A DNA stretch of 64,000 nt from positions 29,326,001 to 29,390,000 of the forward strand of contig NC_086380.1 of assembly GCF_036588685.1 (NCBI RefSeq), given 5' to 3'. Under the pieces are notes generated by a model. The model worked only from the letters and a program-made list of their open reading frames with translations. It was not told the origin of the DNA and did no database searches. The position numbers and the translations under genes are program-made. This document shows, piece by piece, positions 14,101 through 49,800 of this stretch; position 1 is the stretch's first letter; each line of letters opens with the position of its first letter. The stretch is from Mytilus trossulus. Its lineage: Eukaryota.

Positions 14101-17100
14101 TGCATTATTTCTGTTTCAGTTTTTATGGTAGAACCCCAAGGTAAAATGGCTGAGGAGAGCTTAAGGGCAGGTAAATATTTCAATTTTATATTACAGGAAT
14201 GAGCTGACAACATATCGTTAATTTTTCTGCGTAATCTGCTTGATCACCTTTCATCGCCCACTTTTATTGGATAACTGTATGTTTCGTTTTGCTTAGTTTT
14301 TCGTTACCTAGGTAGTACTTATTATTTCAATAAATAGCTATTAAGATGATATTCATTAATTATAATTGTGATAACAATTATAAAAAAGAATATGTTTTGC
14401 AAGAACAAGAAAATTTTACACTATCTTTGAATTCACAATTGTTTGATTTCATGTTTGAAATTGTTGTTTCCGGCCCTTTTTTTGAAATACAACCGAAGAT
14501 GATTTTTATATTAAAGATAGTTATCAATTGACTATTAGCAAACAAATTCAAGCGCAAAGACCAGTTTAAAAAAACACATTTTGTTCATTGGTATCACTCT
14601 TCGGTGATCTACAATTGTTTATTTATATGTCATCTGATCTCTTGAGGATGGCTGTCTCATTGTTAATTATATCACTTCTTTTTCTGTTTTAAATGTACAT
14701 CTTTTACATCTTAACTGGATTGTATAGTAAATGTAGGTTTGTTGTAAATGTTTACTATGATTTTGTTATAGGCAACAGATTGTGGCCTAATCCCCCACAG
14801 TTTATAGATACTATTGCCGAAGGACTAATGAGTCAACAATTAGGCAATCTCACCGTCCCAATCATCTGTAGATTTGTAGAAAAGGAGGTTTTCACTGTTG
14901 TAAGTTTTGCTATTTGAAACTGTAGAAAAAAGAATGGCACAATTAAAATAATGTCAATGTAAGTAAAGGATATAGAAATATGTTTATCTGCAATTCCTAC
15001 ATCCATCAGTTAAAAGTAAGCTTAATAAAGTGGTCTGATCGGTGTTACGTGATTTGCATGTATATATTTATAGCAACGTCCGATTGGAATTTGGCAGTTT
15101 AGTAAGTTCAACTGTTCAATGTAACAGAAGAAATCATTGATGCATTTGTCTAGTGAATACTTCTCCAAACTAGACTACCTCTCCCCACATACAGATTCTC
15201 TAGGAAAAACATTAATGTCTAGTGTTTATAACAGGTACTCTTTAAATTTTGTATTTTTAAAAGTATTTAACAAGTTTTTAAATTGGACTAGGTGATATTT
15301 ACTATAATGAAAAAAAAACCACACAAAAAATACGAGTAAAATGTAGAGTTTTAGTCTAAATATATCATATAAAATTCATAACATCACATTTAACAATATA
15401 TAATTAAATTCATTCTAAAATAAAAGATAAGACAAAACTTTAATAACACTGATTTTGATATAAAATTAGGGTTAAGCAATTTATGAGTAATCCAGTAATA
15501 GTTGAAACTTACTGTTTGCAATAATGATAAAATAGTTGACGTTTTATATTTCTGCATGCACAAACATTGGTTAAATTTCTTTGCTAATTTCAGAATTTTA
15601 TAACGCCAAGAAAAGTGTAGAATGGAAAATTATGGAATTTTATAGAAAAGACTTTATTCATTTGTCAAAAAAGTTGCAATATATAAATGAAACTTTTGAA
15701 TTAACAGATAAATTCCTGAATCACAAATGCATTACTGCATTTCAAGAGTCATAATATGGTTTGAAAATAGACGAGAGGTCAAGGATACATAAAACATCAA
15801 CATAACATACAGTCGACATCAATATGACATAAAACTTAAAAAGTAATCTGGTGTCTGTGTAATGTACTTAGCTAGATATAGCATACAAACTAGTACAATG
15901 AAATATAATGCGTGCAACACTCGGTGTGATAGTAAGCTCAATCTGTGTATTCCCACTTCCCAATCAATGAAAGCCATTAAGAAATAGTGTATTAGCTTTC
16001 AATTCACTTTGGTTTTATTTCTTTTCAACTGAATATCCACGTTTACTAAATAAACTCATCATAGATACCAGGACTAAACTTTGTATATAAGTCAGACGCG
16101 CGTTTCGTCTACAAAACACTCATCAGTGACGCTCGAATACTAAAAAGTTAAAAAGGCCAAATTCAGTACGAAGTTGAAGAGCATTGAGGACCAAAATTCT
16201 TAAAAGTTTTACCAAATCCAGCTAAAGTAATATATGCCTGAGGTTAAAAGCGATGTAATGCAATTGTAGTTTTATGCATAATGTATTGCACTTACATGGT
16301 CTTACTTTTCTAATTTGATAGATTTTTCTATTTAGGGAAATGAAGATATTATTAATGGAATGGTGTTCTCTTTCCGGTATATGAAGGTAACATTATATAC
16401 TCAACACTCTTGTGATCACTTACTCTATTATATTTGCAATCATAATTTGCACATGCGTTAACACACTCGAAAAGAATATCATGAACAGCGCACAATTTCA
16501 ATTTTCGGTCTTGCGTTGTTAAAAAAAAAGAATGACTAACGTAGATACAAGTATCATGTCTTGTCTATAATACTAAAATTACGAGGTCCAATTTGTAAGC
16601 CGTCATCACATAAAAACGACGAATCACAGAATTCAACTTTATATATAACTAATATAGTACAAAGGTGTAGATTAAAAATTACACCACTCCAGGCCCTTTT
16701 GTTTTCCACGTAATTAATATTGCCAATAATTAAGAAGTTCCGGGTCGAGTCCGATACCGATACCAATAGTATATTCACCTGTTACCTATTACCTTATCTG
16801 TACGTTCCGCATCTGACAGGCGCACCACCAAACGGTGTATTTAGGATTAATATGCTATATACACGGGTCATAATCACAAGGTTGACACTACTAAATAGTC
16901 AAATTGTTACCTATTGTAGTATTTTAATCAGTAAGACTTTCTAAGATAACAATACGATTACTAAAAATCTGGACTAAAAATAAGGCGCATAGGTACAGTT
17001 TTCAATTTGTTTGTGGGCATGACGTAAAACAGCGAAACAAAGAATTCAACTTTATTTATAGTAATATAGGACAATGCTGTTGACTCCATTCCAGGACCTC

Positions 17101-18558
17101 TTTTTTCCAAATAATAAATATTACCAATAATTGATAAGTTCCGGTTCGACGGGTTCAAACAGAAAGATTTGAAAGCAGAGAAAACTGTGTATCTTATAAT
17201 CGGCATGACTTTATCAGATGACAATACTAATACTAAAATAAGGCTTGCGCATAGTTATATACTTTAATTCAGTCACGGACCCGTGATATCACGGGTGTGT
17301 TCTAGTGTAACATTAAATGTGTCAATCATTATTTGTCATTGTTTTTAAGAACGCTTGATAAAATCTGATGTTTAAAAAATATCTATACATATAGAATCCC
17401 TTTTTCGGGGTTTGTTAGAAAGAACTTGTTTTACACAAAGTAGTTCCTTGTTTGCATAACTGTTATTTTGTAAACATGTAAAACATTTGGGAAATATTGA
17501 TATCAAATGAAAGCTTGATGACTTTAGATCACTATATAATAGTTATTGAAAGTTCCCGGTGTATAATAAGAAAATGCAAGTTAGATACAAAAGGTTGACA
17601 TTTCCAAATTTCAATCTAGGTATCTATGATGATTTTATTTACAACCTCTTGGTCCATGCCACTGCTGGATGATTTTTTATTTTACGAGGGTATCACCAGC
17701 CCAGTAGTCAGCATTTCTGTGTTGACATGTATTATCATTGAAATGGTTATAATTATAAGTTATCTGTTTACCAAACTTTGAAATTTTGAAATACAAAGTC
17801 TACCTCAGGAATGGATAACCTTAGCTGTCGTTGGCAATACGTTTATGAATGTTTGGTTCTCAATACTCTTCAACTTTGCCCTTTTGTTTGCCTTTTTAAC
17901 TTGATTGTAATCGAGCGTCACTGATGTGTGTTTTGTTGCCGAATATTTGAAATACTAAGACTTTTCTACCTCAAGAATGGATAACCTTAGCTGTATTTGG
18001 CAATACGTTTATGGATGTTTAGTGTTGAATAATTTTAAACTTTGATCTTGATTTGGCCTTTTTAACTTTTTTGTATTTGAGTGTGTTTTTTGTTGACGTA
18101 ACGCGCGTCTGGAGAACATAAAAAGTTTTAATTTTAATGTAATTACAAACGAAAGATGTGTTCATTTGAGTACGGACTAGGATGAGATGTTATTTTGACT
18201 TGAAATGTCTGTCTGTCTTTATCTGAACACATCTGTTTTTATTAATAATTCTTTAATTTGAATTATTTTACTAAGAAACAATCGGGCTAATATTAAGTTT
18301 TGTTATTCCATAAAAATAAAATGAAAATGGAAATTAGAACGTAGAACATTAAATAAATGTTATGATTGTAATGCTATATAGTAATTTTTTTTTAATTTTT
18401 TATTTAAGATGGCAATAGAAGCCGCTGCTGGAGCTACAGTAGCTGCTGCCATGTCAGAGAAGTTAAAACAGATGGATCCTGGTATAAAGAAAATCGGAGT
18501 TATATTATGTGGTGGAAATGTTGACATGTTGAAATTACCATGGTACTCTAAAACATAA
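8170..18558 (+). CDS. SRR: PLP-dependent serine/aspartate racemase family protein (fold type II), 9 exons, 327 aa
   Basis: Exons 8170-8352, 9174-9215, 9692-9858, 11093-11177, 13118-13244, 14120-14170, 14772-14899, 16336-16386 and 18409-18558. All are GT-AG with consistent phases and total 984 nt. Motifs: FKCENLQKTGSFKARGA (PLP lysine), SSGNHG, GQGTIALE, SGGGMISG, VEP, TIAEGL, LCGGNVD. AATAAA at about 18724. Confidence 0.93.
9893..10085 (+). repeat. Interspersed repeat family (aaattgagaatggaaatggggaatgtgtcaaagagacaacaacc)
   Basis: Related copies at about 7100-7330, 53060-53450 and 57040-57185(-). Confidence 0.8.
11271..11699. mobile_element. Foldback/MITE with long (about 140 bp) imperfect terminal inverted repeats and CAC...GTG ends
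   Basis: Left end cacagctact..tactatttctgtactaaaa..gtactggaaat is mirrored by atttccagtac..ttttagtacagaaatagta..agtagctgtg. Confidence 0.8.
12524..13081. mobile_element. Non-autonomous TIR transposon with TTAA target duplication (Kolobok-like GG...CC ends)
   Basis: ttaa|ggaggctcctgggta ... tacccaggagccccc|ttaa. Confidence 0.8.
13811..13954. repeat. 144-bp near-perfect palindrome (hairpin MITE-like)
   Basis: ttaaataacacatagttgagagggtgata..gcagattgg..cattgtcaacc [loop] ggttgacaatg..ccaatctgc..tatcacactctcagctatgtgttatttaa. Confidence 0.85.
16091..16134 (-). ncRNA. Minimal type I hammerhead ribozyme motif within a retrozyme-like repeat fragment (about 16050-16250)
   Basis: Minus strand gtca-CTGATGA-gtgt tttgt agac-GAAA-cgcgc-GTC-tgac. 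Core intact, one stem II mismatch. Confidence 0.7.
16554..17305 (+). mobile_element. Non-autonomous Helitron-like element
   Basis: Perfect 16-nt palindrome cccgtgatatcacggg (17280-17295) followed 6 nt later by CTAG|T (17302-17305), the canonical Helitron 3' end. Internal duplication (agaattcaactttat...ccaataatt..aagttccgg). The 5' TC boundary is approximate. Confidence 0.65.
17610..18130 (+). repeat. Degenerate retrozyme-family repeat with internal duplication and broken hammerhead cores
   Basis: Homologous to the reverse complement of 22120-22545. Remnants gagcgtcactgatgtgtg (17913) and gacgtaacgcgcgtctgg (about 18095). Confidence 0.7.
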
Positions 18559-28882: not shown

Positions 28883-31800
28883 ATGACAGCGGTTTCTTCT
28901 ACAAAAGATTGTTTTAAGATGGAAACTCTAGGTGAAATTTCGAGAAAAGACGGATTTGATGACATAAGGCCAGCACAACCAATCACCGAAGAACAAGACT
29001 ACCATAATTATGACCTTATATCTGTATGTATATTATATTTTTCTTTATGCCGTTTGAGTTGATTCGATTCTCTTAGTCATGATAAAAAAAAAGATTTTCC
29101 ACTCTTTTTCATTATTATACTTTTTCTGTCCAATAGTCGACTTTTTGGGAATTTGCTGAGAGATTCTTATCGTACCAACACATCTATTGTTTCTTTATAC
29201 GGTTACCATGGTCCTAATTTTAACCAGGAAATCTATATGACAAATATGATAAATCAGGTCATGAATGAGATGTTGTAATAAAAAACACCAAACAACAGTA
29301 TCAGTAAAGAACCCTTGCTTAAGAATGTGTCTATTTGAAAGATAACTGTAAGTGCCGCCACAAAATTAAAAGGTCTACTTGCAAATTCTTATGACGTTTG
29401 AATTTCAGACTGTATGCGGCTTGCTAAAAATGATCTGGTAAACTACTTTAAAACAGTATAACACAAATACGGAACCCTCTGGCTTTAATAAATTCCAAGA
29501 GGAAAAATTAAAAAAAATTGACAGAATCAAAAGATAGAGTTTTCAACTTAACATTAATACTTCCAGGCAATCTGGATCTAACATATAGGCTTGTTTTAAT
29601 TTTAGACATTTAAATTTCAGACGTTCCACTGCAAATTAAGATAGATGTTTGTTTTTTCTTCATTATATCCTTTTATACATTTATAAAAATCTGTTTCAAA
29701 ACAACGTTAGTTTCTCTGGTGAATTTGAATCTAAAGGTATCTATTAGTTTGATATGTGCAGGTAAAACTTTGTTATTTTTGGTAGTGTTTGACTTTTTTA
29801 TATTTGTATATATTAAACGATTGGATGGACAATATTTTGATGAATTGTCATTTTCGGAAAATTTTGGAAACGCAGTCGAGGAGACATTAAATAGACATGG
29901 CGTGATGATTGTTTATTCATAACTATACATTTCCAAGCATTGGATTGTTCACAGATAATTTGAATAATTATTTATATTGAAATAAATCTTTTTTTATAGA
30001 CCGAAATTCAAGATGAACCACGAGTCCAGGGTTATTTATCTTATTTTTCTACTTTTGCTGGAGAAAAAATTACTGATCGCTATGCTGGAGGTTTGTGTCT
30101 TTGCAAGAAGTGTTTATATTCATATATACTAGTAGATATGTTATTCGGATGCTAAAATCATAATATTAATGAGAATGTTATCAAAACCTTCGCATTTACG
30201 CATATTTGAATGATAATAGTGACTACACTCAATATCTCTTAATAAGGGACATGCAATGTAAAAAGTAAAATAGCAAAAATACCGATTACAAGGAAAATTC
30301 AAATCTGAAGACCCTTGTCAAAAGGAAAATCAATGCTGAAGCACATCAACCGAATTAAAAACAAATATCTATACCTGAATGCGTCCAAGTATTTCCATGT
30401 GTCGGAAATGAGGGATTAAACCATCTTCCAATGCTAGTTAAACCTCTTAATTGTATGACAGTCAATAAAATTTCACAATAATAAAAGCAAAGCTTGAACT
30501 AACAGAAATAATATGTGAACATGTCAAAATAAGGAGTTCTTCAATTACCTATGTGTCATCAAACGTATCTTCAATACAGTTTTCAATGAATAAAGCAAAC
30601 CAAGCCGATACATGGAGTATTTCTAAATGAATTAAAAATTTGTCAGTATGCCAAATTTCAATTCATCAATACATCAAATGTAATGAAGAATTGAACATGG
30701 TTAAAGCTACTTCATGTAATGCATAAAATTAACTAACCAAGCCACCTACTGATACTCATGTTAGTAAAGGTGAAAAATCCATTCAAATTTGTATAAATGT
30801 TCATTGGAAGCAATATTATAGATTAAAGGTAGGTTTTTTGAGCTGATATAAAATCGTGAAAAAAATCCATTTACATGTTCTTAAACCTGGAATTTATATA
30901 TTTAAAGAAAAAATCAAAGAACGGTCAAGAGTAGTCAAAACATCATGGACACCCAAGGAAGATATGCAGTTAGGCACAATAGTCAAGGTGAAGAAATCAG
31001 GAAAAGAAGTACATGTGCAATGGGACAAGCTTGAAGAGAAAGTTAACCAGTTAGATCTCCGCTTACTTGACAATGCGCCAACAGGTACGATCAAATTGCA
31101 TTTTTTTAAACTTTAATTTTTATTTTGAAAAGGTCACTCGTTCTAATCACCGTCTCAAGGTCTTTAATCCTTAATTTTTGTTATTTATCATTTCGAGTTA
31201 ACGAATTGTTTAATTGGATAGAATTACGGATCAAAATTCGCCTAAAAAAAATAAAATGTGGCATATTAGGCCATTGCACTAAATTAAAAAAACACGCAAA
31301 AAATATCAAATTAAATGAGAATTTGATCAATAGATTCACACTAAATCACAACCCCAGTTATCATGACCATTTAAGTGTTGACCTCTGAGTTCATAATTAC
31401 CGAAAAGATTTCAGTAAGTAAACGTCAATTTTGAAAGTCATTTAACGACTGGCATATTGCAAAGTGTAAAACCGAAGGAAACCACCAAGTGCATGGATGA
31501 CAGATTTAACCTTGCATTTCTCACCTGTAGGCAATCGTCGAATTTCTGCTGTGGTAGATATCATTATTTTAGGTGCGATTCTGCTTCCAATCGACGTTTA
31601 TTTTGTAGAGAATAATTAACGGTTTCGCGATGATGGTAGGCAATACAGCCCTTGACCACTGTCATCGACGAAAACAGGTCTTGCAGTTATGTGGTGATTG
31701 TCAACATTTGGAAAAACAATCGGTTGACAAACTTCCCTGATGTATCCATCACCTTCAATATTTTTCTCGTTTGGTCTCAAAGACTCAATCGGACATTTGT

Positions 31801-34800
31801 TACATACGACAGAAACCGGCTTTCGTCCGACAAATGAGTCTTTTAAGTTCAAACCATCTTATAGAAAACACAATACCTAACGCAATCATAGATGTCGATA
31901 AGATAACATGAGACGTCTTATTAATGTTGACTTCTTGATTGTTTTTGGTTGTAATGTACCTATTTTAAGCTTAAGGTAACCATTATCCTTTTGGAACAGA
32001 AATATTTGCAAATGGCATTCTAAGCAGGTAATGCTTCGAATGGGTTCCACGATCCGTGGAAGTCTTTCACGAAGTTTGTTTAGATGTGTTTCCGGAAGCT
32101 GACTACAGAGTAATGTTACCACATGTGACGTCTATTATCTTTAAAGGAAACCCCAGTTGACTGCAAGTCTATAAATAGTCATATATGAGACTTCGATATT
32201 TGTCTTTGTATCATGTAAACATGAAATGAATAATTTGTCAAAACACCGAACCAAATGGAAGCAAGCGTAAGCATCTTGATATTTGGATATACCATGGAAG
32301 GCATGGTTCACGTGCATGCAATTTCTTTATTAGCAGTAACAGCAGTATTATCACATCTTTTTAACCGAATAATGGTCTTTTTTTTTCGTTTGAGTTGATA
32401 TTTGCGGTAACACAATGTAATTAAATATATAATTGGGTGCTTTTCTTTTGTTTGTTGATATTGGAGCTATAAAGATTCACGTATATTATTGCAATTCATT
32501 GCAACGCTTGAACATTTGTATTTTGCTACTTTAACAACCTTCAACAAGGTTTAAATAATCACTAAACTACTGTCAGCACTCTAAAATGCTTTAACTGTTT
32601 TATGTTTTTTGGCATATTCGTGAAATTGTATACAATGCTACAACTATGATGCTAAATTAGATAATGCCTGTATCTAGTCAGACATATGACTGTTGTTATC
32701 CAATTAGTGTGATGTGTTTGAGCTTTTGATTTTTGCCATTTACTTAGGAATTTTCCATTAAGAATTTTCCCCGAAGCTCAGTATTTGAATTTTTATTGTT
32801 GTCAGGCTTCTGAAAACTAAAAAACGTAAAAGTAAAAGAAAATATCACTTCACTTTTGTTTTAGATCCTAATTAGATACGATTTTTTTTACCTTCCTAAC
32901 GGCTTTAAGTATATTTAGCTGAGGAGTTTAGCATTATCTAAAATACTGATGTTTTTGTTTGCCTTTGACAAAAAGTTGGAATATTCAAGTTACATTTTAT
33001 ATCTTTACAAGTGTACTTTGACAAATAAATGTGAAGAAACACATATTTTTAATTGAATTTTATAAAAATTTCTGAATGATTGTATTTTCTATAGAGAAAA
33101 AAGAAAAAAGTTCAAGAGTAGTATTGATATCTCGAACAACCATAAACAACAGTACAGCAAGCGGCATTCATCCTGAAAGAAAAGTAAACCTTCGTTTATT
33201 GGACAATGCACCCATTGGTATGCACTTCTTATATTTTTTGTTCTGATTGTGAATTCTACGTATTTGCACTTAGCTGAGTCTATATTAATCATATGATTTA
33301 GGGTATTCATAAAAGTCAATGTTATGCATACGGCTCAATATGTATGAAACTTTGCTTTTAACATCAGTTGATAAAATATACTAAAAAAAAGAACAGGATG
33401 ATGATTATTTACAAATAAAGAAATAGGACGAATATAACAAAACATAGCCAATAATTGATGTCTGACTGTTTCGAGAGGATAAAAAATGTATTTGTAATAT
33501 TTTTCAGCAAATCTTCAGGCAAATATTTTTAAATTTTTTACAACGCTTACACAAGCACATATGATATTTCATGGTTGTTACAGCCTCAATCTGGATTGAA
33601 TAAAGATTAGTGACATTTTACACTCTCAAATGCTTTATATCTCTCAGTCTATGGCATATATGTTATACCACTGATGCAATGACCGACAGATTTTCAGAAA
33701 TTTACTGTTTTATATATAACGCATGTGAATTTCTTATATGAATTAAAATCTATCTTATCAATCCGATGCCAAAAAGTTACATGTCAATGTTATACTTTAA
33801 CCCAAATATTCTAGTGGATAAGTTTTGATATTTTGATATTTTGTATTCAAAGACAAAATAGAACATGGAGCAAGAGTAGTAAAAAAATCTTGGACACCTA
33901 AAGAAGAAATGCCTTTAGGCACAATAGTTATGGTGAAGAAAGCAAGAAAAGAAGTTCATGTCCAATGGGACCAGATTGAAGAAAAAGTTAACCTGCATGA
34001 TATACGTTTAGCGTCTGATCTTCATTGCACTAACAGGTATTGCTGTATTGTATTTTGAATAAAAATTATTAATAATGTGCACGTGGCTGTTGTATATATT
34101 TGTTTGAATAGAACGCATAAGCTTTGACATCGGGTTTTTGAAAAAGTGAATTGAAAACATCCTTTTCAAGATATATGTGGAAGTCTTATTTAAAGTCTGG
34201 TTATTTAAAATAAAAAATGAGTTTAATGATATATTAAGAATTAAGTAAGTAAAATTTTCTAACAAATAATACATGTACATATGATTCTATTTTTGTTCTG
34301 CTATAGATTTTTTAATAGCAACAGCATAGTTCTTGCCTGGACATTGTCAGTTTATTTTTTACTAATGATTTTCATATTTGAAAAACGGTATACTACTGTT
34401 ATCTTTATTCGAGTATCCCTTTTAAAACTTATGCCTTTTTTACGGAACCTGATTAGTTGAATTGCTTTTGAATTGAATTAGAAAATATATCGCACAGTCT
34501 TATTGTTATCATCAAATTTTTAATAAATATATTGTAGTATTCATTATTTAAACATAACTGGTTTGTATTTGACATACCATACAGAATATTAATTTCCTTT
34601 CTTTTAAACATAAAATGCATAATTACAAATGTTTACACGTTAACAGATTGCATACATATTTTTCACATTTTTTTGTAGTGAAAAAAAGGAAAGTTCAAGA
34701 GTAGTAAAATTATTGTCAACCGCCAACGAAGAAAATTGTCTAGGCACCATAGTCAAGGTCAACAAAACAAAACAAACCGCTCGTGTCCAATGGGATAAAA

Positions 34801-37800
34801 AACCAGACGAAAAAGTTAAGATGGTTAAACTACGTTTAGTCAGCAATTATCTTACAGGTATTAACTAAATAATGATATCTTTAAAACTGTTAATTGATTA
34901 CTCTATTTATCGCTATTTTGTGATAATTGTTTGTATTATACTACTCCCTTGTGATAGAAATTTATAGCTAGAAACTAAGGATACATGTGGCGTTGCTATG
35001 AAATTAGCAACGTCATCACAGGTAGAATAGCGATAAACAGATAATCATTGGTCACCTCAACTCGATTGCTTTTCTCGCTTTCGCCGTTACGGCTCAAAGC
35101 GAGAAATTCAATATCGTTGAGATGATCAACGATAATCTATAAATATTTTCATAAAAAAAAATTAATCGAGAGACGATTTCGAATTATTGAAAAGTTGAAA
35201 AAGTTGAAAAGAGATCTGCGTCTTATACTAGGTCATGAGATCTATTTCATTACTTGAGTGACAACTAATATTTCAACTTTACGCATACAACGTTTTAATT
35301 CTGTATATTTTAGCTTTTCTCTTGTAACTAATTCTGCTTTAATGAATACTATAATGAGAGTAATCAGTTACCATATAATGTATTGAAACTATTCAACTGG
35401 TACACCACACGAGTTCTATACTCAATAATGTCAAACTATAATTCCATTTTATATGACAAATTAATGTTTACATGCATAACATTTTGAAATACCTGAAACA
35501 TTTAAGCAGCTGTGTGTACTATTTTATGATTCTGTGCGATCTTGTTTTGTGTGTGTTAACAATATACCAGAAATATGCGGTTATTTTAATAATGTAAGCG
35601 AAAAGACCATGTTTCATGTTATTTGATACTGTTATAATATCAATTAAAACCAAACACTGTATATTCCATGCCACGAGCGATATAATAGACCTTCAATATG
35701 TTCAAGAAACAAAACGCTACATTTGAGTACCGAATTAAGCTTAACATCTTCGAATTATGGATTTTTATTTATAGAAAAAATAGAAAATGGTTCTAGAGTA
35801 GTTAAAAGATCACAGACAACAAGAGAAGAAATACCTTTTGGTACAATAGTCAACATAAATCAATTCAAAAATGAAGTTCAAGTTAAATGGGACAAGCCTG
35901 AAGAAAAAGTTGACCCGCTTGACCTTCGCTTATATGACAATGCGCCATCAGGTAGTTCATAGTTATAATTTGTAATTTTTATATGTGATTTATATTTTTC
36001 AAAGTTTGTAAACCTGAAACAATTGTATTCATTTTAAATAAGAAAACATGCAAAGCTTTCGTTGGTATCCGTTTTCGTTAGTCGCATTTATCTATTTGTG
36101 TTTTTTTCATCTTCTCTTTTCTAAAGTTTCAAGAAGGTTTTCAACTATGAGTTCAAAACGATACATTTGAACCAGTATCTTACTTTTAAGTTCACCTAGC
36201 TCTTTGGGCCAAGTGAGACTTTCTCATCACTTTGCGTCCGTCGTCCGTCGTCGTCGTTGTCGTCGTCTGTTAACTTTTACAAAAATCTTCTCCTCGATGG
36301 CAGTTAAGGAGTTATTGCCCTTTATAGTCATTTTTTACCAATTTTTCGTAAATTTTTGTAATCTTTTATAAAAATCTTCTTCTCTGAAACTACTGGACCA
36401 AATTTAATCAAACTTAGCTACAATCATCATTAGGGTATCTTGTTTAAAAAATGTGTGCGGTGACCCAGCCAACCAACCAAGATGGCAGCCATGGCTAAAA
36501 ATAGAACATGGCGGTAAAATGTAGATTTTATAACCAAAGCATTTAAAGCAAATCTTACAAGAAGTTAATTTGTTTATATAGTTAATATCTATCTGCCCTA
36601 ACATTTTCAGATGAATTGATCAACTGGTTGTTGGGTTGCTCCCCCCTCATTTGGTAATTTTGATAGAAATTTAGCCGTTAATGGTTATTATCTTGAACAC
36701 TATTATAGATAGAGATAAACTGTAAACGGCGATAATGTTTAGCAAATGAAGATCCACAAATGCGTCAACAAGACCAAAAAGGTCAGTTGATCCCTAAAGA
36801 AGTTATTGCCCTTTATAGTCAATTTTTACAGTTTTCATTTTTTTGGTAAATTTTGGTAAGTTTTTACAAAATGATTTCCTCTGTAACTAAAGGTCAAAGT
36901 TCATTACAGATAGAGAAAATTGTAAGTAGCAAGACTGATCAGTATAGTATGATCTTCAAACACATTACCATCACCAAAACACAATTTTGTCATCTATCCA
37001 TCTGTTTCCTTTGATTGATATGCACATAGACCAAGGTGAGCGATACAAGCTATTAAGAGCCTCTAGTTAGATATATCTTCCTATCTTTAAGGTAAAGTTA
37101 ACTTTATAAAGTATCAGGCACCGTTGAATTCAGATATATTTGTCTATTATGTTGTTTTTGTCACACACCTTTCTAACTGCTTTATTTCTTATAAATGATT
37201 GCCTTTAAACATTTTACATCAAGTATACCTGATGGTAGTAAATCGTGTAAAGCTTTATCCGCACGATGACCTATAGTTAAAAACTTCTATGTCATCTTGT
37301 GGATTGTTGTACCCACAACAAATATATACCACATCTTCTTATTTTTATGTTTAAAAATGTAATCATAATTGATAATTAAAGTAAAATAAAAATGAAAAAA
37401 GTGCTGTTTTTCCATACATATACTAGTAATGACAGTTAGTCAATTTTGATTGAGACCAGATCCATTATGTTGTGATTGCTGAAATTGAAAAACCTTGTCA
37501 ATGATTGAAAAAAAAATCGTGACCATTATCTTCCTTTTTATGTTATATCCAACGATGTTGGGCATGTCCCTTCATCCTGGTATCTATGATACTTTTATTT
37601 AGGAATTATTTTTGTTGAACGATTTAAAAAAAAGAAATTATGGACGTCATATGTTTCGGTTTGAGAGTTCTGGATGAAGAAATTATATGAAAATAACTTC
37701 GTACTCAGAACATATATCAAACCATGTTTTCATCTCCTCTGAACACTGATCAGTATCGAAAACTAAATCCCGAATTCTAGGTGAATGCAAACAATACATT

Positions 37801-40800
37801 AAAATGAAAACCCTTATGATTTTTGCACCAAATCATGTCAATCTTTCATAACACAATAGCTACAAACCAAGGCTAAATCCTAGAAAATACACATGAAATA
37901 ATATTATGACCATTAAAACCCACACTACTCGTTATAATAGTTTTATTGACACATTGTTTTAACTAAATGAGATCTCCCTGCTGTATTCTGTTGTACTCTG
38001 TTATAATTGTTTTTAAAAAAAATGTATTTCACTATTTGTTCAAGGAGTGAAACATGCCAACGTAACATGCGATGAATGTTATACGTATCCTCTACGTGGC
38101 ATACGATGGAAGTGTCTCCACTGCGACAGCTACGATCTTTGCACAGTCTGTTATATGGTTGATGAACACAATGTCAATCATATCTTTAGTCGCATTCAAA
38201 GTGAGGATTCAAAAGGGTAATAATCTGCTATTTTTATCTCCATTTTTCTCCCTTTCATTCTTTACACTTTTTAGGGGATTTGGTGGTCGAGTGGTATAAT
38301 TAGCACAATTACTGTATGACAAGACTGCCAACGTTGATGTCTGTTCAATTATAATCATACTCAACAAGAATTATCTGCTTTCGACCTAAGTTCTGCACCC
38401 CGGAGTCCTTAACCAATAAAAACTAGCTCTTTAAGAGGTGATAAACACCAATTGATTAATATACACATATAAATGTATTGACAACAAAGTGAGAACCAAA
38501 TAATACGACATGAAGAGCAAAAATTAGGATACAACTGTCAACATTGTTCCAATCTTAATCGTTTACTATACAACAAACAATTGTGTCAACAAATAAATGT
38601 CACAATAGCACAATGAAGATATTTACTGACACCGAGTCACACCGAACATACAATCTATCATGTTATACAAGGACATATAAAATGAAAACACATGACCACG
38701 TAATTAAGATTTCAAGTGGGTTCAGTTCCTAGGATTTATATTTTAAGGTCAATATGTATCAGTTGTGATGTTTATACGAATATCTGTCAACAAGGGGTTT
38801 GTTTGAAGAAAAAGACGAGACGTTCTTTGACCCACCGCGGAGTAACAGTTGCAATCTCTACGAGTAAGGAAAAGAAATAAACATTCATATTCGTTACACA
38901 CAATTTACGACAATCAAAATATTTTGTACGAAGAAGCTAATTCCATTAAAAAATCGTTTCATATCTGTATTCCAGAAAAGAACTTGCAGCACGGTTTGAT
39001 GTGAAACTGACTGGCTATGCATTTGCATGTGGCATATTGGAGAATGCAGAAGTGTCGCTTCGAAAAGATAACAGAAAAAGAGGTATAAACATTACAGTTT
39101 GATTGTCATACTTTAACTTATTTTCTCTCTGTGGTAGTTTTCAAGAGAATATATCTGATAAACATGACAAGATGACATTTTAAAACATCCCAATGCGACC
39201 ACTAACTATTTTTTGGTTCTTTTTATGAACACTGAAATTAAAATAAATCGAAAAACTGCAAGTCGATACAATTTATATATCGCTTTTCATCAACAAAAAC
39301 ATCATTATAAGGATTGTTTCCAATGTTATATTGTTAGTTATTTACTTAGATGGTATTATGAGGAAACGAAATATTTACAAACATTCGTATTGTTTTTTAA
39401 CAGCAAGAGAGAGTTGTGAAAAGTCGTAGTGACCATTAATGATACTTTTTTCTTTATTTCTTTAATATATATATATATATATATATATAAAATGACTGAA
39501 TAAATAGTCAACGATCAATCTTACAAGGCGATGGATCATGTAATATGATTCTGTACACTACAAAATATAATATATAACAAGTCAAAAAGGGTACAACATC
39601 ACCATAAAATAACTATAAAATATACAAATATTAGATATTTCGGATAACAGATATCCTTCTTCAATAATAGCACGATGTCAAATGAATCATGTCAATTCAA
39701 ATTGAGACTGTATCAAAATCTTGATTTATACAATTTAAGCGAACGCTGGAACAATTTTAAAATTTCCAAACACACCGCAAAGACTACAGAAATATGCCAA
39801 AAATAAAAATAGTTATTTACGATGTGAAATGGCACAACTTTAGATTTCCAAAGGATGTGACAGTTGAGATGTAATAACTGCATTGAGGGCAGTCCTCAAA
39901 CAAAAAAATCAAAATAATCAAAAGTGTCCTTACCGATCCAGGATGGTATAAATTAGACAACGGCAGGGCAATTACAACGGAAACTACATATTAAAGCCTT
40001 CCAAACGAATAGCAGTCTAATAGTGATTGAAAAAATAAGTTTTGTATATTGAGCTTAAATAATTGAACGTGACAACGTACTTATACATCATCCCGAATCA
40101 ATGAAAACCTGTAATTTAAACGGTTATTTTAAAAATAATTTCGAACTGTAAAGCCAGTACTAAATCCGGCGTTGTTTAAAACAGGTGGTCACAGAAAAAT
40201 GAGGGACTCGTTCTATGTTTTTTCATTTATGCCCTCTGGGGAGACTGTCCGTAACTAATATATATACAACTCGTCTAAACATCAACCCAACAATGTTAGA
40301 TCTGTAAATTTGCTTTCGCAAATTTTTGGTTCTTCCCTCGCCGGGATTCGAACCCATGCTACTGTGATATCGTGACACCAAATCGCCTGCACTGCAGCCG
40401 TCCCGCTAGACCACACGACCACCTGGGCTCTCAAAAAAAGAGCTTTCGCTGGCCATATGTTACCTTTCCACGTCAGTTTTAATCTAGCGGCGTACTACAG
40501 TACATGATATATAAGACATGAAGATGTTATTGTTACAGATCAGCTAAATTATCTATAGTAAAGGATCCTACAAATTAATGTAAAATACAGTCACAGAAAA
40601 TAATTACATTCATAAGTACGTCTGAGTCAGTGACAACCCTACAACAGATGTATCCATCGGATCGCCATCAATGATGGTGATACATGGCTGTGTACATAAT
40701 GTATATACAACTCGTCTAAACATCAACCCAACAATGTTAGATCTGTAAATTTGCTTTCGCAAATTTTTGGTTCTTCCCTCGCCGGGATTCGAACCCATGC

Positions 40801-43800
40801 TACTGTGATATCGTGACACCAAATCGCCTGCACTGCAGCCGTCCCGCTAGACCACACGACCACCTGGGCTCTCAAAAAAAGAGCTTTCGCTGGCCATATG
40901 TTACCTTTCCACGTCAGTTTTAATCTAGCGGCAATATATATACGAGTCTAAATTGAAAACTACGTTCAAACCTATGATTGCGTTGGATAAAAACCGCAAT
41001 TTTTATACGTGTGCATGTCAAACAAATTTCGTTGTAGAAGGGTCTAAAAACAGCACAAACAACATTTTCCAAAAGACCAAAAATGTGAAAAAGTATATTT
41101 AAACAAAACGCATTTGACTAACAGGTCGAACAACCGATGTTCTTAAACCCTGCTGACTGCCATTGACGAATGCCAAATAAAATTGATCACAAGATGTAAC
41201 AAAATGGATCTGAATATAAATTTAATACGTCACAGAAAAAAAAATTTGTTAACTTGTGGCTACGATGTTGTGCCACAAACATTCGGTGTCAATATTTCTT
41301 TAGTACACCAGATCTAGATTTCGACAATATATGTCTCTTCAGTGATGTTAGGGATCGAAACGGTATTTGAAAGGCCATATAATTTACTCTCAATTTAAGA
41401 TTGACTCTTGAATTTTAAGAGACAATATAGGATGAACGGATCATATAAACCGGAGGGAAAATATGATACATGCCCAAACAAAAAATATTAACGAGTCTAA
41501 ATTGAAAACTACGTTCAAACCTATGATTGCGTTGGATAAAAACCGCAATTTTTATACGTGTGCATGTCAAACAAATTTCGTTGTAGAAGGGTCTAAAAAC
41601 AGCACAAACAACATTTTCCAAAAGACCAAAAATGTGACAAAGTATATTTAAACAAAACGCATTTGACTAACAGGTCGAACAACCGATGTTCTTAAACCCT
41701 GCTGACTGCCATTGACGAATGCCAAATAAAATTGATCACAAGATGTAACAAAATGGATCTGAATATAAATTTAATACGTCACAGAAAAAATAAATAAATA
41801 TATATATGAAAAGATTGATTAATTCGTCTAGCTTATATATATATATATGAAAAGATTGATTAATTCGTCTAGCTTTGTCAGATGGAAAATTCAAATGAAA
41901 AGAATAATATCATGTAGAAATGTATTTGTTTACTTATATAAACTCCTTAACAACAGGTTTAAAAAATACAACGGGGTAAAAATAATTAGTTAAGGCAATA
42001 CGAATGTACATGTAATTGTACATCTTATAAACACAACTAGACATCATCAAAATCAAAACAAAGTTCAAACGTCATTTATCAAAAGTGGTTTGTAAAGAGG
42101 AATGGGTATTTTGGAAATTTTCATTTACTTTTAAAGTTAATTACAATATTTGTAAACTGTAAAGCTAAAGGGTGACATATATTTCATTTATGAAAGTGTA
42201 ATGTTAAAACGTTCAAAATCATTATCTCATGTGTATATATTCTAGGGATTGGGTACGATTTTATTCGTCACTTCCGTAAATTCATTTCTAATTATAATTA
42301 AAAAGTCGCTGTTGATAAAGATTAAGATATTCTGTTCGTATAAATAGTTTAAACACGAAATTGTAACAAATAAACTTTTTACTGATATATTACATAACAA
42401 TTGTTTCAATTCAAGGTGTAGTACTAGCAATACGTGAGGATGTAGTTGACGTACAATGGTTGACTAATCATAAAAGAAGTCGACACAATATTTTGGAACT
42501 TCAATGCGAGGTTGCAGAAGCACGGCAGTTTTATCCGGACCATCTACCGATACTCGGAAAAGGTTACAGTTATTAACTCTTTAAATCAGTATCTATAAGA
42601 CATGATAACGACTATGTTAAAATAATAATGGTACAATTTAATTTTGAATGTGCCTAAAACATTAGTATTACGGCCCTTCACTACATAATTGATAAAAGTT
42701 ATATGTATAACTCGTTTCAACATTTCACCTTCTATAAATAAGGCTCAATATTCAAACTAATGAAAAACTTTTTTTTTCTTGAATTTAATCTTAATTAATG
42801 ACATATAGGAAAAAAGGAATACATGTACCGTTGTTGCTACGCACATCATTTTTTTTATATTTCTATGCTGAACGGTTCGAAAAAGAAAGGAGTAGGGGCA
42901 TTAAGGCCTGGTTTTGGCCCAAGAAAATAAAATGATTGATAACTTTTTCAAATTGGCACATAATGTTTAGAAATGGATAGTGTCAAGAAATATCAATGAA
43001 AAACATTACGATTTTTATGTGATGACGTCACAATTATGTCATAATGTGTACTGTTTTCACAAAAACGATGAAAAATACAGTGTTTATGCAGTTTACTATC
43101 TTTATTTCTGTTGTGGAAACATGGTGCGCAGCCAAGAAACAACTTAATAATTTAACAGAAGTTTTATTATAACTATTGACAAAATCTCACCAAATAAAAA
43201 GTTGTTTCTTGGGTGCGCACATACTTTTTCAATCTAAAATATACTTAAAATTTGATGAAAAACAAAGAAAATCAAGAATTTTTACAAATTATGCAAATTA
43301 AGTCATGAATTGTTGCCATGGTAACTTGTTCAGTGTCCAAAATTGTTTTGTTTTTCTGAATACCTTGTACCTTAGATAAAGTACAGCAATTTAAAAATAT
43401 GTATGATAACTTTTGAATTTGCAGTAATTTTTGGGCCAAATAAGGGCCTTATTGCCCCTACTCCTTTGCAAGCCCAAAACAATGCATACATGTGTGCAAG
43501 ATATAGGAATTTTATATTACATTTATAAATGTAGAACGAAACTATTCAAAGTAAATAAAAAGGGAATAACGGAAAATAAAACGTATATCTAGTATTTAAT
43601 AAGTTGAAAAGAAGATTGACACTGAATGATTTCAAAAAAAGCCATTGACAATTAAACGCATTTGTCATGCTTATAATGCAATATTGTCCGATTTCATGAC
43701 AATGTCGTCAATTAAAGGTTAGCAAGACAGTGGTTGAACTATTGATGATTCGGGGATAAGACTTTCACAATGGGCGAGGTCAATCATTTGTCCTCGTTGT

Positions 43801-46800
43801 TTTCCATTTACCTTAAGATGCTGTTCTTGATTGATCCTGTTGGGAGGCAAAGAAAAAGGACATCGATAAGAAACTTAAATGAGCACACAGGGTGTTCGAC
43901 CAACAAAATATTTTATTTCACGTCAATTTGAGACCTAACGTCAATCTCTATCGAATGCATACACATAGATTAAACCATATTATTAGACCGTTACACGCTC
44001 ATAAACGCACATGCAATGAAGGTCAACGTAACTGATCCCAACGATTAATTTTGCTATTAACATTTGCTTCAAACTCTTTATAAAACGTTTTAATTGTAAT
44101 TATTTGAATAGATACTCTAGGCCATGTTGACGTTGATTTCAACCACAACAACATAACAGAAAAGGTCAGTGAATTTTGTACGTACACTGTAAGTTATTAT
44201 TTTTTTAATTTAAAACTTTTTTTAAATACGTCTTGTTTCAAATTGCATGTGATGAGTGAACTTTTTTTTCTTGATTTCATAAATTGTGTTATAATTAAAA
44301 ACACTTAAGATGCAAAAATGCTAATTGTGCCCATCTTTGGTCGTGAATTGCATCATTTCAATGTATGATGATGGAATATGTTTTAGAAAGGTATCTAATT
44401 TAGCCATGTATTTTGTTGGTGAAGTAAGAGTATACGCTATAAGGGTAAATACAAAACAAAATGACCACAATTAGAGTAGATATCTAAGTAATAGGATTTG
44501 TTTGTAAATCGTGTTTATTATAATACCTTATTGTAAATGTTCAATTTAGTAAGCTATAAAAGCAAGTTTAAACAACAATTTCCTTAGAAAAAGTATGTAC
44601 CACGTCAAGGAGAAAGTACAATGACAGTTTTTTTTTGGTTGTGTTAATTCGTTGCATTCAATTTTGTCAGTTTTAATGCATTTTCCATTTGAATTTGACT
44701 TGATATATTTGATTTACTTTTTAAATACCAATAAAATTAATCAGATTCAGGTGAACATACGGTATCGGATTGAAAAGGAACAGAAACGATCATATAAACC
44801 TGTGTTGTACCTCATTTTCGCAAATAATAAAGACACAGATCACAAAAAAGACAAATGTCTCCTAATGGATGAAGTCTTTGAATATTCAAGTAAGTAACTA
44901 AAAACTTTTAACGGTAAAGTAATTATACATACAACATATGTCTTATATATTTATAAATCTTTAATTCTCATCTCTATCGTGACAACATATCACCATAACT
45001 ATTTTGTTAGCTACATCTTTGTCTTTTCTTGATATAATTTCTATTTTTTTGTGATATAAATGAATAAATCACATTATGGTAAAAACTATAACTTTTATTA
45101 AGAAATTAAGTATGTAAATTATATTTCATATGTCACGAAGTAACAATAAACCTGACAGATTGCATTGTTAAATGTTGGCGTCTTCTGTTTTATACCGGCT
45201 GATATTTAATTAAATGTTTTAAAAATGAATAGAATCATTGTATCTCTATAATTCTGCAACGGTTATGTTACAGAAAAAACTAAATTACCATGTCATGTCA
45301 TCGGAAAGAAGGTACTGTTTCTGCATGGTTCTTCGCGAGTAGTATGTATTCACCATACCACCAGTAATCATACAATCAAGGTAAATGTAGATAACATGTA
45401 TGTATCATATAGCAAACTAATTATACCCCCGCTTTAAAAAAGGGGGGTATACTGTTTTACCTCTGTCTGTCCGTCAGTCCGTCAGTCCTTCAGTCCGTCC
45501 GTCAGTCAGTCCGTCCCATGAAACTTTCGTCACATTTTTCTCAGGAACTAAAATACAAGGATTTCTGAAATTTGGTTTCATGGTTTATCTAAGTCAGCTA
45601 TACCGTGTGATGCGTTTTCAGATTGATCACTTGACAACTTCCTGTTTACCGAACACTTGTATGATTTTACACATGATAGCCAAGTTGAAAATTTTCGTCA
45701 CATTTTTCTCAGGAACTACAATACAAGGATTTCTGAAATTTGGTTTCAGGGTTTATCTAAGTCAGCTATACCGTGTGATGCGTTTTCAGATTGATCACTT
45801 GACTACTTCCTGTTTACCGAATACTTGTATGATTTTACACATGATAGCCAAGTTGAAAATTTTCGTCACATTTTTCTCAGGAACTACAATACAAGGATTT
45901 CTGAAATTTGGTTTCAGGGTTTATCTAAGTCAACTATACGGTGTGATGCGTTTTCAGATTGATCACTTGACAACTTCCTGTTTACCGAACACTTGTACGA
46001 TTTTACACATGATAGCCAAGTTGAAAATTTTCGTCACATTTTTCTCAGGAACTACAATACAAGGATTTCTGAAATTTTGTTTCAGGATTTATATAAGTCA
46101 GCTATACCGTGTGATGCGTTTTCAGATTGATCACTTGACAACTTCCTGTTTACCGAACACTTGTACGATTTTACACATGATAGCCAAGTTGAAAATTTTC
46201 GTCACATTTTTCTCAGGAACTACAATACAAGGATTTCTGAAATTTTGTTTCAGGATTTATATAAGTCAGCTATACCGTGTGATGCGTTTTCAGATTGATC
46301 ACTTGACAACTTCCTGTTTATATTATCCACTTGCGGCGGGGGTATCATCAGTGAGCAGTAGCTTGCAGTTTACTTGTTTGTTTTACATGGTACACACGTT
46401 TTTGATTTCAGCTATCCCCTGACTCTTTGCATATATGATTCATATAATACAAATTGCATTACAATTCAGCTCTTAAAAAATACAAAAAACACTATACTAA
46501 TCATACAGGTTGTGAAGAAAAACTAAAACACAAGTCATACTTTTTTTTGAATGTTGAGTAATAGCCCATACAAATTAATACAAAAAATGTTTTTTTCGGA
46601 CTTTTGGACTTTTTAAGTGTATGTTTTGCTTTTGAATCAAGTTGTTTGTTAAATAGTAAGTTGACATAATGAATTGTTATACGTTGTTGTTTTAATCAAA
46701 CATAGGAATTAGTAAAGAAAGGATTCCGGATTTTCGAAAGAGGGGATACAAACACCAAAGAAACTGAAATTAAATACTTCATTAGAATGGCAGAATGTAA

Positions 46801-49800
46801 GTATTCCCCAAAAATAATATTAAATTTCAACAAAACAGATGATTTTGATGCATTATTATGAACTGCAATTTCTATGTAGCACCTGCATTCTGAGATGTTT
46901 ATATCCTTGTTTAAGTGATGCTCATGGGCTTGTGTTTATTTAACATGCTTTCCTAGAAAGATAGTTGCTTGCGAATCATAATCATTCCAATATTTGTCGT
47001 AATCACAATCCTGTTCACATGTTCTTTGAATTTGACATTATGACATACACTTCTTGTTTCTCAGTTGTCTGTTTTCTATGTTTTGATTTGTAATTGTTTT
47101 TTTGGATCTTTTTCTTTGTATTTGCTATGTCAGTTTAATTTTTGACTTATAAGCTTGAATGTTCCTTTGATACCTGTCGACTCTCTACTGAAAGATTAAT
47201 ATTAAATTTTATAATATTTGCATTATGATATTACTTTTACATTTTCAGATGTGTTGGATGAGAAAGTTCTGCCCGTAATTATTTCCTTACGTAATGGAGG
47301 ATTGCATAAAGACGTTTTATTCAGTGCTAGCAGTTTATTACTCCCGATTATTCGATTCAAGGTACCAAATTAATTTAACAACATGTTATTTGTTAAAGGT
47401 ATTTTTCAAAGTGATACAATGCTTTATGAAATTGTTCAGGACGGGTATCCTTCATTGAAAAAAAATTGCTATAGTTTTAGTAAGTAAGATATATGTTGTT
47501 ATTATGATGTCAAAAGATAAAACCATTTAGATATTCCATTTGATTACTATCAGGGACACTATTCTAGACAATATCTGTGCATTTCTAATAATCTGCTTTT
47601 GTAGAAAAACTGTCCAGACGCAACAATTTTAACGCTTGCAAATGATGGTTCTACTGAACAAGCAACTGAACATATCACAAATTTAAAGACTCCGTGGACT
47701 GTCAGAAAATCAGAATCCCTTATTGTAATAAAGAATGCAGAAACAGCAGAAGAAATATCAGCTATAAGTGATGTGCAAAGTAACTTGGATTTCGGAGCTT
47801 TGATATGTCATGTCGTTATTGGAGGTATGCCCGTTTCAAATAGTCCATCATTAATAGTTATCAAAGGTATCAGGATTATTATTTAGTACGCCAGTTTTCT
47901 CGTTTGAATTGTTTTACATTGTCATTTCAGGGCCTTTTATAGCTGACTATGCGGTATGGTTATGGTCTGGGCTTTGCTCATTGTTGAAGGCCGTACGATG
48001 ACCTATGATTGTTAATTTCTGTGTCATTTTGGTCTGGTTGTGGACAGCTGACACGTTGGAAATCATATCACTCTTTTTTTTTTTTTTATATTAGATGTCA
48101 TATGTATAGATATTAACGAAATTTAAAGGAATCTATGCATACATTGTTCGTGATTATGATATGCATTAACCGCTTTTTTTTAATTCCAAATAAACGATTC
48201 ATCGAATTTGCGTATAAACTACCAAATGAAGACGTCTATTTTATGTTTTTTTATGATATATAAGCATATGATCTTAACTAATGTGATGTTTATATCTATC
48301 ATGCAATCATGTTTCCTTTTTTTTGCAGTTTTCATGGCGAACAAACAAAACATATACGTAAGTTCAAATTTACCATGCTAATTAAACAACTATTTTTATT
48401 TACGTTCTTAAAAGAAACAGCACATGTAATATACCAAAGACAGTGAAACTCAAAATACAACAAACTATCGTGTGGTCTCATGTGCCTTTGAAGAGTAAGC
48501 ACATCCCAGTCCAATGGCTATAGCCACCGAGTTGCTCTTAATCACACTAGTACACTTGAGAGAGAGAAAAAACGCTTTGAAATCAATTTTAGATAACCTT
48601 TGAAGCAGATTAATCGGAACAGAGTACGACTTTCTCCAAGACAAAATAGAGACTCAATTGAAAAAAAAATCATAACCAGAATCACAGTTATTGATTGAAT
48701 AAAAACAATAAAACTATGGTTAACAATCGATCTACGCCTTTTGATCTCTAATTTCACTGTCCCTCTTGTATCTTTTAACCTTTTTTTTCACAACCCTTTG
48801 CTCCAAACTTAAGGTGCGTCTTTAGACATGTCCGAGAAATAGGTCCTCCACTGTAAATGAGAACTGGCTCATTACTGATCTTGCGAACAAGTTGTAAAAT
48901 ACAAAGGTAGGGATTCACGCCATTTCGATTTGGTAAATGTGTCTTTTCCAATAATAAGACGATTCTAAATCTTCATAACGGTAGCCAATGGAATGTTCCA
49001 AACACATCAAAATTTCAACGTGAAAATTGATCTTTTTTCAAAGCAATGTTTATAAACAATACCATGTATCAATCGTTCTATAAACTAAACAGCAACTTGA
49101 TATTAATTGATTGGTTGGTTTTATGCGTCAACTTTAGCACCGTTTTGGATAAAGCCGCATTTTCCGGGTAGAACCACCGATCTTCACACAGAAACACGTA
49201 CTTTATGCACAACGCTATAATTCTTGGGAAATGTTACTTAATTAACGCATCGTTGTATATATAATGTAATTTAATGCAACTGTCATACCAGTTAGTAGTT
49301 TAGCGATATAAAACCAGGTCCTATTACTATTTTCTTCATTTGAAAATGCCTGTACCAAGTCAGGAATATAAAAATTGTTGTCCATTCGTTTGATGTGTTT
49401 TATCATAAGATTTTGCCATTTAAGTGGGGACTTTTAGTTTAAATTTTCCTCGGAGTTCAGTATTTTGTGGTTTTACTTTTTTTCAGTAAAAATACAAACT
49501 ATTTTAGGACACAGATAAAGACGTGTACGCAAACATATTATCGATGTATCTTTTGAAGATTGAAAAATGGAAAATTCCGGAAGACGCCATCAAAATGGCA
49601 TTTGATTATCGATCTATTGAATACATATATGAAAAGGTAATGAAAATAATGAAATATATTTTTTAGTTATGACTTCAGTTATCAAACATATTTTTGCAAT
49701 TAAAAACAAATGTTATATGCTCTTCAACTTTGTATTTGTTTGGTTTATAATTATTTCGTTATGAGCGTCACTGATGATTCGTATGTAGACGAAACGCGCG

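Follow-up and report, generated by a model that had tools for sequence, protein, structure and literature searches.

The window analysed here is a stretch of 64,000 nucleotides of Mytilus trossulus (contig NC_086380.1 of assembly GCF_036588685.1, positions 29,326,001 to 29,390,000 of the forward strand), and its main feature is a gene, LOC134727554, in which five successive exons each encode a repeat derived from the Mib/Herc2 domain. The initial annotation of this DNA described a five-fold amplification of the first Mib/Herc2 repeat of a Mind bomb gene, diversified like a fast-evolving immune receptor. We find that the amplification is supported by sequence and tree evidence and that the array is old, conserved and spliced; the gene itself, judged by its sequence, is a TRPM-type channel with a Mib/Herc2-ZZ-Mib/Herc2 (MZM) module in front and not Mind bomb. 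The anatomy of the gene is close to certain, and its function is inferred.

The protein of LOC134727554 (P0002) has 1412 residues, and the first repeat exon is identical to part of it. P0002 is encoded by 32 exons extending from 28919 to approximately 68465, with the final exons just past the window end; all 31 introns have GT-AG borders and the spliced exons reproduce P0002. This one open frame encodes, in order, five Mib/Herc2-derived barrels, a ZZ zinc finger, a sixth barrel and a TRPM-type channel, so that the MZM module and the channel account for all 32 exons. Because no Pfam match to REP (MIB) repeats, ankyrin or RING domains was found at E values up to 1 in P0002, P0004, P0006 and P0008, and because the C-terminal part is a channel, which the initial annotation did not mention, we ruled out a Mind bomb orthologue.

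The channel body was recognized in several ways. Its 60 best listed matches in the PDB are all TRPM structures (TRPM3/TRPM2, best E 1.4e-31), and a profile built from the family matches ordinary TRPMs along 615 columns, from TRPM homology region (MHR) 3 to the TRP helix, with a probability of 100; the helical MHR3/4 region is aligned from column 635 on. Known TRPM channels have added modules that bind nucleotides (SLOG, NUDT9H) or act as kinases, some of which are described in PMC13143021 and PMC12980990. We obtained no Pfam match to NUDIX (NUDT9H) or kinase domains, and the protein ends about 150 residues past the TRP helix. Between repeat 6 and MHR3 the family proteins scanned have no Pfam match, to LSDAT or to any other domain. 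Three lines of evidence, each weak, taken together suggest that this region is a diverged SLOG domain: the model of a relative, P0084, has nvTRPM2 as its top Foldseek row (E 2.9e-3, weak alone); a second fold search (VIA) with the same model returns TRPM5, TRPM5 and TRPM7 as its top three (Z 6.9, root-mean-square deviation (rmsd) 5.2, 236 aligned), below the safe level of the tool; and the first Atlas match is an LSDAT cluster (0.91, 194 features), along with SLOG-TRPM clusters, also weak alone. Residues E1049, Q1052, N1071 and D1074 of P0002 align, via an alignment of P0022 with nvTRPM2, with E893, Q896, N918 and D921 of nvTRPM2, the S2-S3 Ca2+-site residues whose roles are described in the available portions of PMC5976436. 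These four ligands, the TRP-helix glutamate and the FGE filter are all retained.

The five repeat exons lie, like every exon of the gene, on the + strand, and positions refer to the window. Repeat 1 occupies 30908-31084 (177 nt), repeat 2 occupies 33095-33217 (123 nt), repeat 3 occupies 33853-34036 (184 nt, being 7 nt longer near the 3' end), repeat 4 occupies 34679-34857 (179 nt) and repeat 5 occupies 35775-35951 (177 nt). Their phases are 1-1, 1-1, 1-2, 2-1 and 1-1, repeat 4 restoring the frame of repeat 3. Each of them is flanked by AG and GT, and joined they give 280 codons with zero stops, which confirms the exons as initially annotated. Repeat 5 adjoins the ZZ finger and with it and repeat 6 makes up the MZM module.

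Splicing of the repeat exons was examined in two contig runs, X1 and X2, guessed to be RNA; such contigs show which joints are present, and not the absence of rare skips or the level of expression. Joints 1-2 and 2-3 are found in both runs and joints 3-4 and 4-5 in X1, where a loose contig end at 35952 reads into the ZZ exon, giving the order 1-2-3-4-5-ZZ. The phases bear out the earlier proposal that exons 1, 2 and 5 can be skipped without a frameshift, and in principle the frame would survive the loss of exon 1, 2 or 5 singly or of 3 and 4 together; however, none of the six joints listed in the X1/X2 contigs, from which rare forms drop out, skips a repeat, and 26 of 27 M. californianus models retain all five repeats. 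These 27 isoform models of LOC127712112 (P0003-P0005, P0019, P0039-P0062) switch stepwise between neighbouring paralogue sequences and are most likely a merged annotation of tandem genes, with cross-paralogue splicing or gene conversion as less likely readings. Contig variants within the repeats (four synonymous and six non-synonymous in X1, three and five in X2, four of them shared) are too few to judge selection.

We compared the array among paralogues using the ratio of non-synonymous to synonymous substitutions per site (dN/dS, Nei-Gojobori method; the pairs are not independent). Designating the gene of the window A and its tandem paralogues B to E, the ratio over the array is 0.30 (0.20-0.42) for A-B, 0.21 (0.14-0.30) for A-C and 0.19 (0.12-0.30) for B-C, with 0.26-0.33 in the transmembrane region and 0.03-0.08 in the ZZ finger for comparison. 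Repeat 2 has values of 0.18-0.22, and the intervals for single repeats lie below 1 in 13 of 15 cases and reach 1 in two. These estimates place the five-repeat array under purifying selection and not in decay. The locus is thus not a single transcribed exon among neutrally decaying copies, since all five exons are transcribed in X1/X2 at an array dN/dS of 0.19-0.30; pseudo-exons and neutral decay are ruled out by the contig splicing together with these ratios.

The repeat number is likewise stable. All five repeats precede the ZZ finger in 37 of 62 scanned proteins and no protein has more than five, so that a comparison across paralogues and species gave no higher count. Five repeats are present in all three paralogues of this type (dS 0.4-0.7) and in five Mytilus species. 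Three of the 62, draft models P0010, P0012 and P0016, are missing internal repeats, and P0012 reads through intron-like sequence; we did not take them as alleles, though they may be real ones. Among orthologues repeat 1 is 92-98% identical, repeats 3-4 are least conserved (80-94%), and repeat 4 is the fastest-changing copy. Among M. trossulus, M. edulis and M. galloprovincialis, residue differences in the array amount to 10-12% versus 4-5% in the rest, mostly in repeats 3-5, whose rate of change in the edulis complex is roughly double that of the remainder. The counts for array versus rest are 28/281 versus 51/991 (p 0.005), 29/281 versus 16/397 (p 0.002) and 33/281 versus 18/397 (p 0.0006); there is no array excess between M. 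coruscus and M. californianus (10/281 versus 25/973, p 0.41) or between M. trossulus and M. coruscus (33/281 versus 99/973, p 0.44). These Fisher tests are post hoc, uncorrected, non-independent and at the protein level only, and positive and relaxed selection are indistinguishable by them. The suggestion of an immune-receptor-like variable array is not upheld by copy number or dN/dS, with the faster change of repeats 3-5 in the edulis complex as a hint in its favour.

Descent of the five repeats from the Mib/Herc2 domain is clear from sequence comparison. Exon 1 alone, used as a genome-wide query, finds exons 3, 4 and 5 at E 3e-17 to 8e-7, and a hidden Markov model (HMM) of the repeat scores the five exons at E 2e-30 to 2e-4, partly by construction because it was built from these exons and their relatives. 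None of the five window repeats matches Pfam MIB_HERC2 (PF06701), and the homologue P0001 of M. coruscus gives E 0.45, below the curated cut-off; the relatives P0021, P0022, P0023, P0031, P0068, P0233 and P0234 pass that cut-off, and oyster family members retain a canonical MIB_HERC2 repeat above it. The repeat 5-ZZ-repeat 6 portion of P0001 (334-504) matches MIB1 39-231 (phmmer E 3e-22), and oyster P0235 matches MIB1 at E 2.6e-35. The GxDW..DGG loop of canonical Mib/Herc2 repeats forms a series: it is full in oyster P0234/P0235, altered in Mytilus P0021/P0022/P0031, gone in the single-repeat D, E, P0019 and P0024, and absent from all five copies. Its absence from the copies had been noticed before; because the single-repeat proteins already lack it, the loss predates the amplification.

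The copies have diversified, with 30-63% protein identity to one another, and each has kept its own identity across the three paralogues. As initially described, copies 1 and 3 resemble each other most (74% DNA, 63% protein identity), and copy 2 has an internal deletion, which removed its central hairpin. Copies 2 and 4 do share the start SSRVV here but are just 55% identical in DNA and 37% in protein, and copy 4 reads GSRVV in all seven other orthologue sequences covering the site, so their likeness is partly a recent change in the trossulus lineage. The lysine richness attributed to the repeats is modest: lysine makes up 17, 10, 13, 19 and 10% of repeats 1-5 versus 9.1% of the whole protein, and 12-15% in single-repeat paralogues. 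The net charge of repeats 1-4 is +2 to +7, and repeat 5 is neutral.

An AlphaFold model was made of P0001, which is 88% identical to P0002. It has five strands in repeats 1, 3, 4, 5 and 6 and no structure in repeat 2, and so the former are predicted to be five-stranded SH3/Tudor-like barrels and the latter an unfolded linker; in the model, four of the five copies thus keep the SH3-like barrel. The modelled repeat 4 resembles Tudor, KOW and SH3 barrels at Z 8-9, among them the PHF19 Tudor domain (Z 8.9, rmsd 1.9, 56 aligned), and a fold match to MIB1 4xi7 was also obtained (Z 7.4, rmsd 16.2, 111 aligned).

Gene A comes first in a tandem cluster of five copies, all lying within about 440 kb. Each of genes A, B and C contains five repeat exons, and D and E contain one each, 17 in total and no others; a search of 464 kb with the protein HMM and with nhmmer revealed no hidden sixth upstream repeat. 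The single repeat exon of D and E (180 and 201 nt) has phase 1-1 and therefore could be copied without a break in frame. Each of repeats 2, 3, 4 and 5 clusters with its counterparts at the same position in A, B and C (bootstrap 100, 100, 100 and 89), and repeat 1, which is unplaced at the root, is 83-85% identical across the three. Because the copies group by position, the array arose once, before the A/B/C split and after D, and was never homogenised; its source in Mytilus is one symmetrical exon of phase 1-1. In all three paralogues exon 3 has gained 7 nt and exon 4 has gained 2 nt at its start, which compensates for the shift, and exons 3 and 4 are therefore locked as a pair. The five-repeat proteins form a clade of eight rows (support 99) beside the D type. 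In paralogue B, a one-base frameshift lies at about 29425709 in an A-run of the repeat-6 exon, while its dN/dS is still purifying; this is either an assembly error or a recent loss.

The order of the duplications was tested with eight topologies on two alignments. The two-exon unit of duplication proposed earlier is, like every other topology, not rejected on the first alignment (approximately unbiased (AU) test, p 0.42) and is borderline on the second (AU p 0.047), where the grouping of 2 with 4 alone has 0.062; the two alignments differ in whether repeat 2 groups with 4 (bootstrap 64) or with 5 (91). When introns were compared, no pair of different introns within an array gave a match that marks a duplication unit, the matches found being same-position paralogue introns or interspersed pieces.

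Named family members come from five Mytilus species, Saccostrea cucullata, S. echinata and Ostrea edulis; none from Crassostrea/Magallana, scallops or clams was seen among the names checked (20 of 150 representatives, word-limited searches). The M. trossulus genome has at least 17 related loci. The MZM-TRPM fusion channels form one clade (24 of 37 rows, 466 channel-body columns, SH-aLRT support 100) on a stem of 1.45 changes per column in a quick tree without a mixture model, in which long branches are flagged. Oysters carry the ligase-channel fusion with one copy at the array position. The order M-Z-M-M-Z-M is found in oyster members, in Mytilus P0022 and in cluster gene E; it looks like the ancestral form of the family, from which the single-ZZ genes would derive by internal deletion. 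M. coruscus P0021 (2219 aa) apparently has two channel bodies after one double-ZZ module, probably because the model merges two tandem genes. Other added domains were also seen on TRPM-like proteins, namely fibronectin III (P0104), TIR (P0128) and CARD (P0018), the last a draft MZM-TRPM model and possibly a merged one.

By analogy with Mind bomb and other TRPM channels, we propose that the tandem array is a cytosolic docking surface at the N-terminus of a TRPM-type channel, which would bind short peptide motifs of partner proteins and thereby place or regulate the channel; we rate the chance that this is correct as about even. The available portions of PMC11887331 and PMC5345843 describe binding of the MIB1 MZM to the N-box, a short motif in Notch ligand tails, and the mussel MZM would similarly recognise a short linear motif; because there is no RING, this recognition would be used without ubiquitin transfer. 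From TRPM biology and the retained S2-S3 ligands and TRP-helix glutamate, the protein would be a tetramer gated by cytosolic Ca2+, each channel presenting 16 amplified barrels, four of them within MZM modules. The extra barrels could add avidity or accommodate further partners, with repeat 2 as a linker. Several observations weigh against this proposal. Because paralogues D and E manage with a single repeat, the function of the family does not require five, and selection just to stay folded would equally account for purifying selection as strong as this. The conserved GxDW..DGG loop is lost. The P0001 model is weak (mean pLDDT 52.9, 20 close sequences), and the fold matches are to generic Tudor, KOW and SH3 folds at Z 7-9, which indicate fold and not function. 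The ZZ finger has Ser at the position of p62 D147, where MIB1 has Asn; according to the available portions of PMC6197226, the p62 ZZ binds free N-termini and needs D147 for binding. Finally, no contig running from the repeats into the channel exons was found in the X1/X2 search, which was swamped by high-copy intron repeats.

The extra repeats could instead be tolerated passengers, left by four rounds of copying of a symmetrical exon and kept only since an unfolded or frameshifted N-terminus would harm the channel, with only repeat 5-ZZ-repeat 6 binding. The coexistence of single-repeat and five-repeat paralogues, the lost core of repeat 2, the lower conservation of repeats 3-4 and the two dN/dS intervals that reach 1 are as expected from such a history. 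Even so, all five copies were kept in three of three paralogues and in five species, though a phase 1-1 exon is easily lost in frame, repeat 1 is strongly conserved among orthologues and even repeat 2 has a dN/dS of about 0.2, and we regard this history as rather unlikely. It is also conceivable, if unlikely, that the gene encodes an intracellular immune or damage sensor, whose barrels or ZZ finger bind foreign or protease-generated peptides and open the channel while the array diversifies under pathogen pressure. This would transfer the immune reading of the initial annotation to a channel. Binding of free N-termini by p62 ZZ fingers, the tandem cluster with its many related loci, the absence (NUDIX) or strong divergence (SLOG) of nucleotide-sensing parts and the excess of array differences in the edulis complex would all agree with this; yet that excess is not seen in the other two species pairs, rests on tests unable to separate positive from relaxed selection, and is accompanied by paralogue dN/dS values not above those of the transmembrane region and a copy number that never exceeds five.

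A related and still more doubtful idea, which we consider quite unlikely, is that mussels and oysters have peptide-gated TRP channels, in which a ligase substrate-recognition module placed on TRPM replaces nucleotide sensing and a cytosolic peptide opens the cation pore; candidate peptides would be the tail of a partner, an N-terminus made by a protease or a pathogen protein, and the five-repeat array would widen the range of peptides. The charge of repeats 1-4 and top fold matches that include the Spt5/NusG KOW and an ssDNA-bound PWWP raise the question of whether the basic barrels bind phosphoinositides or nucleic acid instead of peptides, as KOW/PWWP-type barrels do. Since these folds are generic, the ancestry is Mib/Herc2 by sequence, lysine content is close to that in paralogues with one repeat and repeat 5 has no net charge, we find polyanion binding improbable. 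Least credible of all is an annotation artefact that joins a truncated MZM gene to a separate TRPM gene immediately downstream of it. Draft models often do stop before the channel (P0001, P0009, P0035, P0031, P0235), and the missing contig from the repeats to the pore is in keeping with two genes, but all 31 introns are canonical and in frame, the same order is found in five of five tandem copies and, within one model each, in mussels, Saccostrea and Ostrea, and the fused channels are one clade.

The remaining exons of the gene are arranged as follows. The first coding exon (28883-29023) is spliced to 30000 in X1 and X2; translation likely starts at the ATG at 28883, orthologues beginning MTAVSS, and the database model begins at 28919. 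The next exon (30000-30090), ahead of repeat 1 and covered by contigs in both runs, encodes a 30-residue segment conserved across the mussel and oyster members of the family, without a relevant Pfam match; this segment could pack against a barrel or serve as an in-cis ligand. Its joint to repeat 1 (30090-30908) is not among the joints listed in X1/X2. The ZZ exon (38045-38216; Pfam E 2.8e-10) is closest to the ZZ fingers of MIB1 and HERC2, and the post-ZZ Mib/Herc2-like barrel, repeat 6, spans 38976-42562 in two exons (38976-39082 and 42416-42562), with the joint 38216-38977 present in X1. Six exons at 44112-47824 encode the putative, strongly diverged SLOG/MHR1-2-like domain identified by the fold of P0084, seven at 48329-57771 encode the MHR3/4 and pre-S1 region by profile comparison, and those from 59101 to the window end at 64000 encode S1-S6 and the TRP helix.

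Introns of the gene contain high-copy elements at about 36000-37400, direct repeats of 236 nt (40256-40932) and 314 nt (40933-41795), and a 168-nt tandem array that has 4.7 copies and contains an open frame (45525-46320). Upstream in the window, a single 767-codon open frame on the + strand (1772-4072) has Mab-21 and Mab-21_C domains and is presumably a gene of the cGAS-like receptor type; it is a neighbour only. Exons of a pyridoxal phosphate-dependent enzyme (PALP), which we take to be serine racemase/dehydratase-like, lie at 8089-18555 on the + strand. Elsewhere on the chromosome, the region at about 29312900-29320900 has a 751-codon minus-strand open frame, a few frames of 225-283 codons nearby and a low-complexity array of about 5 kb that is open in three frames, and is possibly a mobile element.

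The array shows the amplification of a symmetrical exon in a clean form that can be dated, complete with a compensated shift of intron phase, and the single-repeat paralogues in the cluster are natural controls that make the role of the extra repeats directly testable. The host family is more notable than the array: a TRPM with an E3-ligase substrate-binding module, kept since the mussel-oyster split and present at many loci, points to a possible path by which the recognition of a protein could be turned into ion flux. The database names of family proteins are 'MIB', 'TRPM2' or 'uncharacterized', and the fusion is therefore hidden. We found no description of a Mib/ZZ-TRPM fusion in the literature searched (titles and abstract starts, with subscription journals outside coverage), and the terms 'ZZ-type' and 'Mib' are absent from the main texts of PMC13143021, which divides TRPMs into alpha, beta, beta-like, gamma and TRPS subfamilies, and PMC12980990.

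In terms of known systems, the tandem clustering is like that of the TRPM expansions of intertidal bivalves, for which the available main-text portions of bioRxiv 10.1101/2024.05.23.594666 report tandem TRPM-like clusters and 167 TRP genes in Mytilus; these portions do not describe domain fusions or Mib/ZZ, and the supplements may list such genes. The mussel ZZ finger shares its fold with ZZ readers of N-termini (p62/SQSTM1, HERC2, KCMF1) and has equivalents of p62 D129, R139 and D149, three of the four pocket positions checked, but differs from p62 in the Ser at D147 and in lying between two barrels, as in MIB1. With Mind bomb (MIB1/MIB2, PDB 4xi6/4xi7) the protein shares the Mib/Herc2-ZZ-Mib/Herc2 order and sequence; unlike Mind bomb, it has five repeats ahead of ZZ, has lost the loop, is without REP, ankyrin and RING matches and continues into a channel. 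That channel is like TRPM2/3/8 (nvTRPM2, PDB 6co7) in its MHR3/4, S1-S6, FGE filter, TRP helix, position of a coiled-coil-like tail and S2-S3 Ca2+ site, and the N-terminal fold modelled for its relative P0084 appears closest to TRPM MHR1-3; it is set apart from other TRPMs by its long stem, a SLOG region too diverged for Pfam LSDAT, the lack of a NUDIX or kinase match, and the MZM module at its front.

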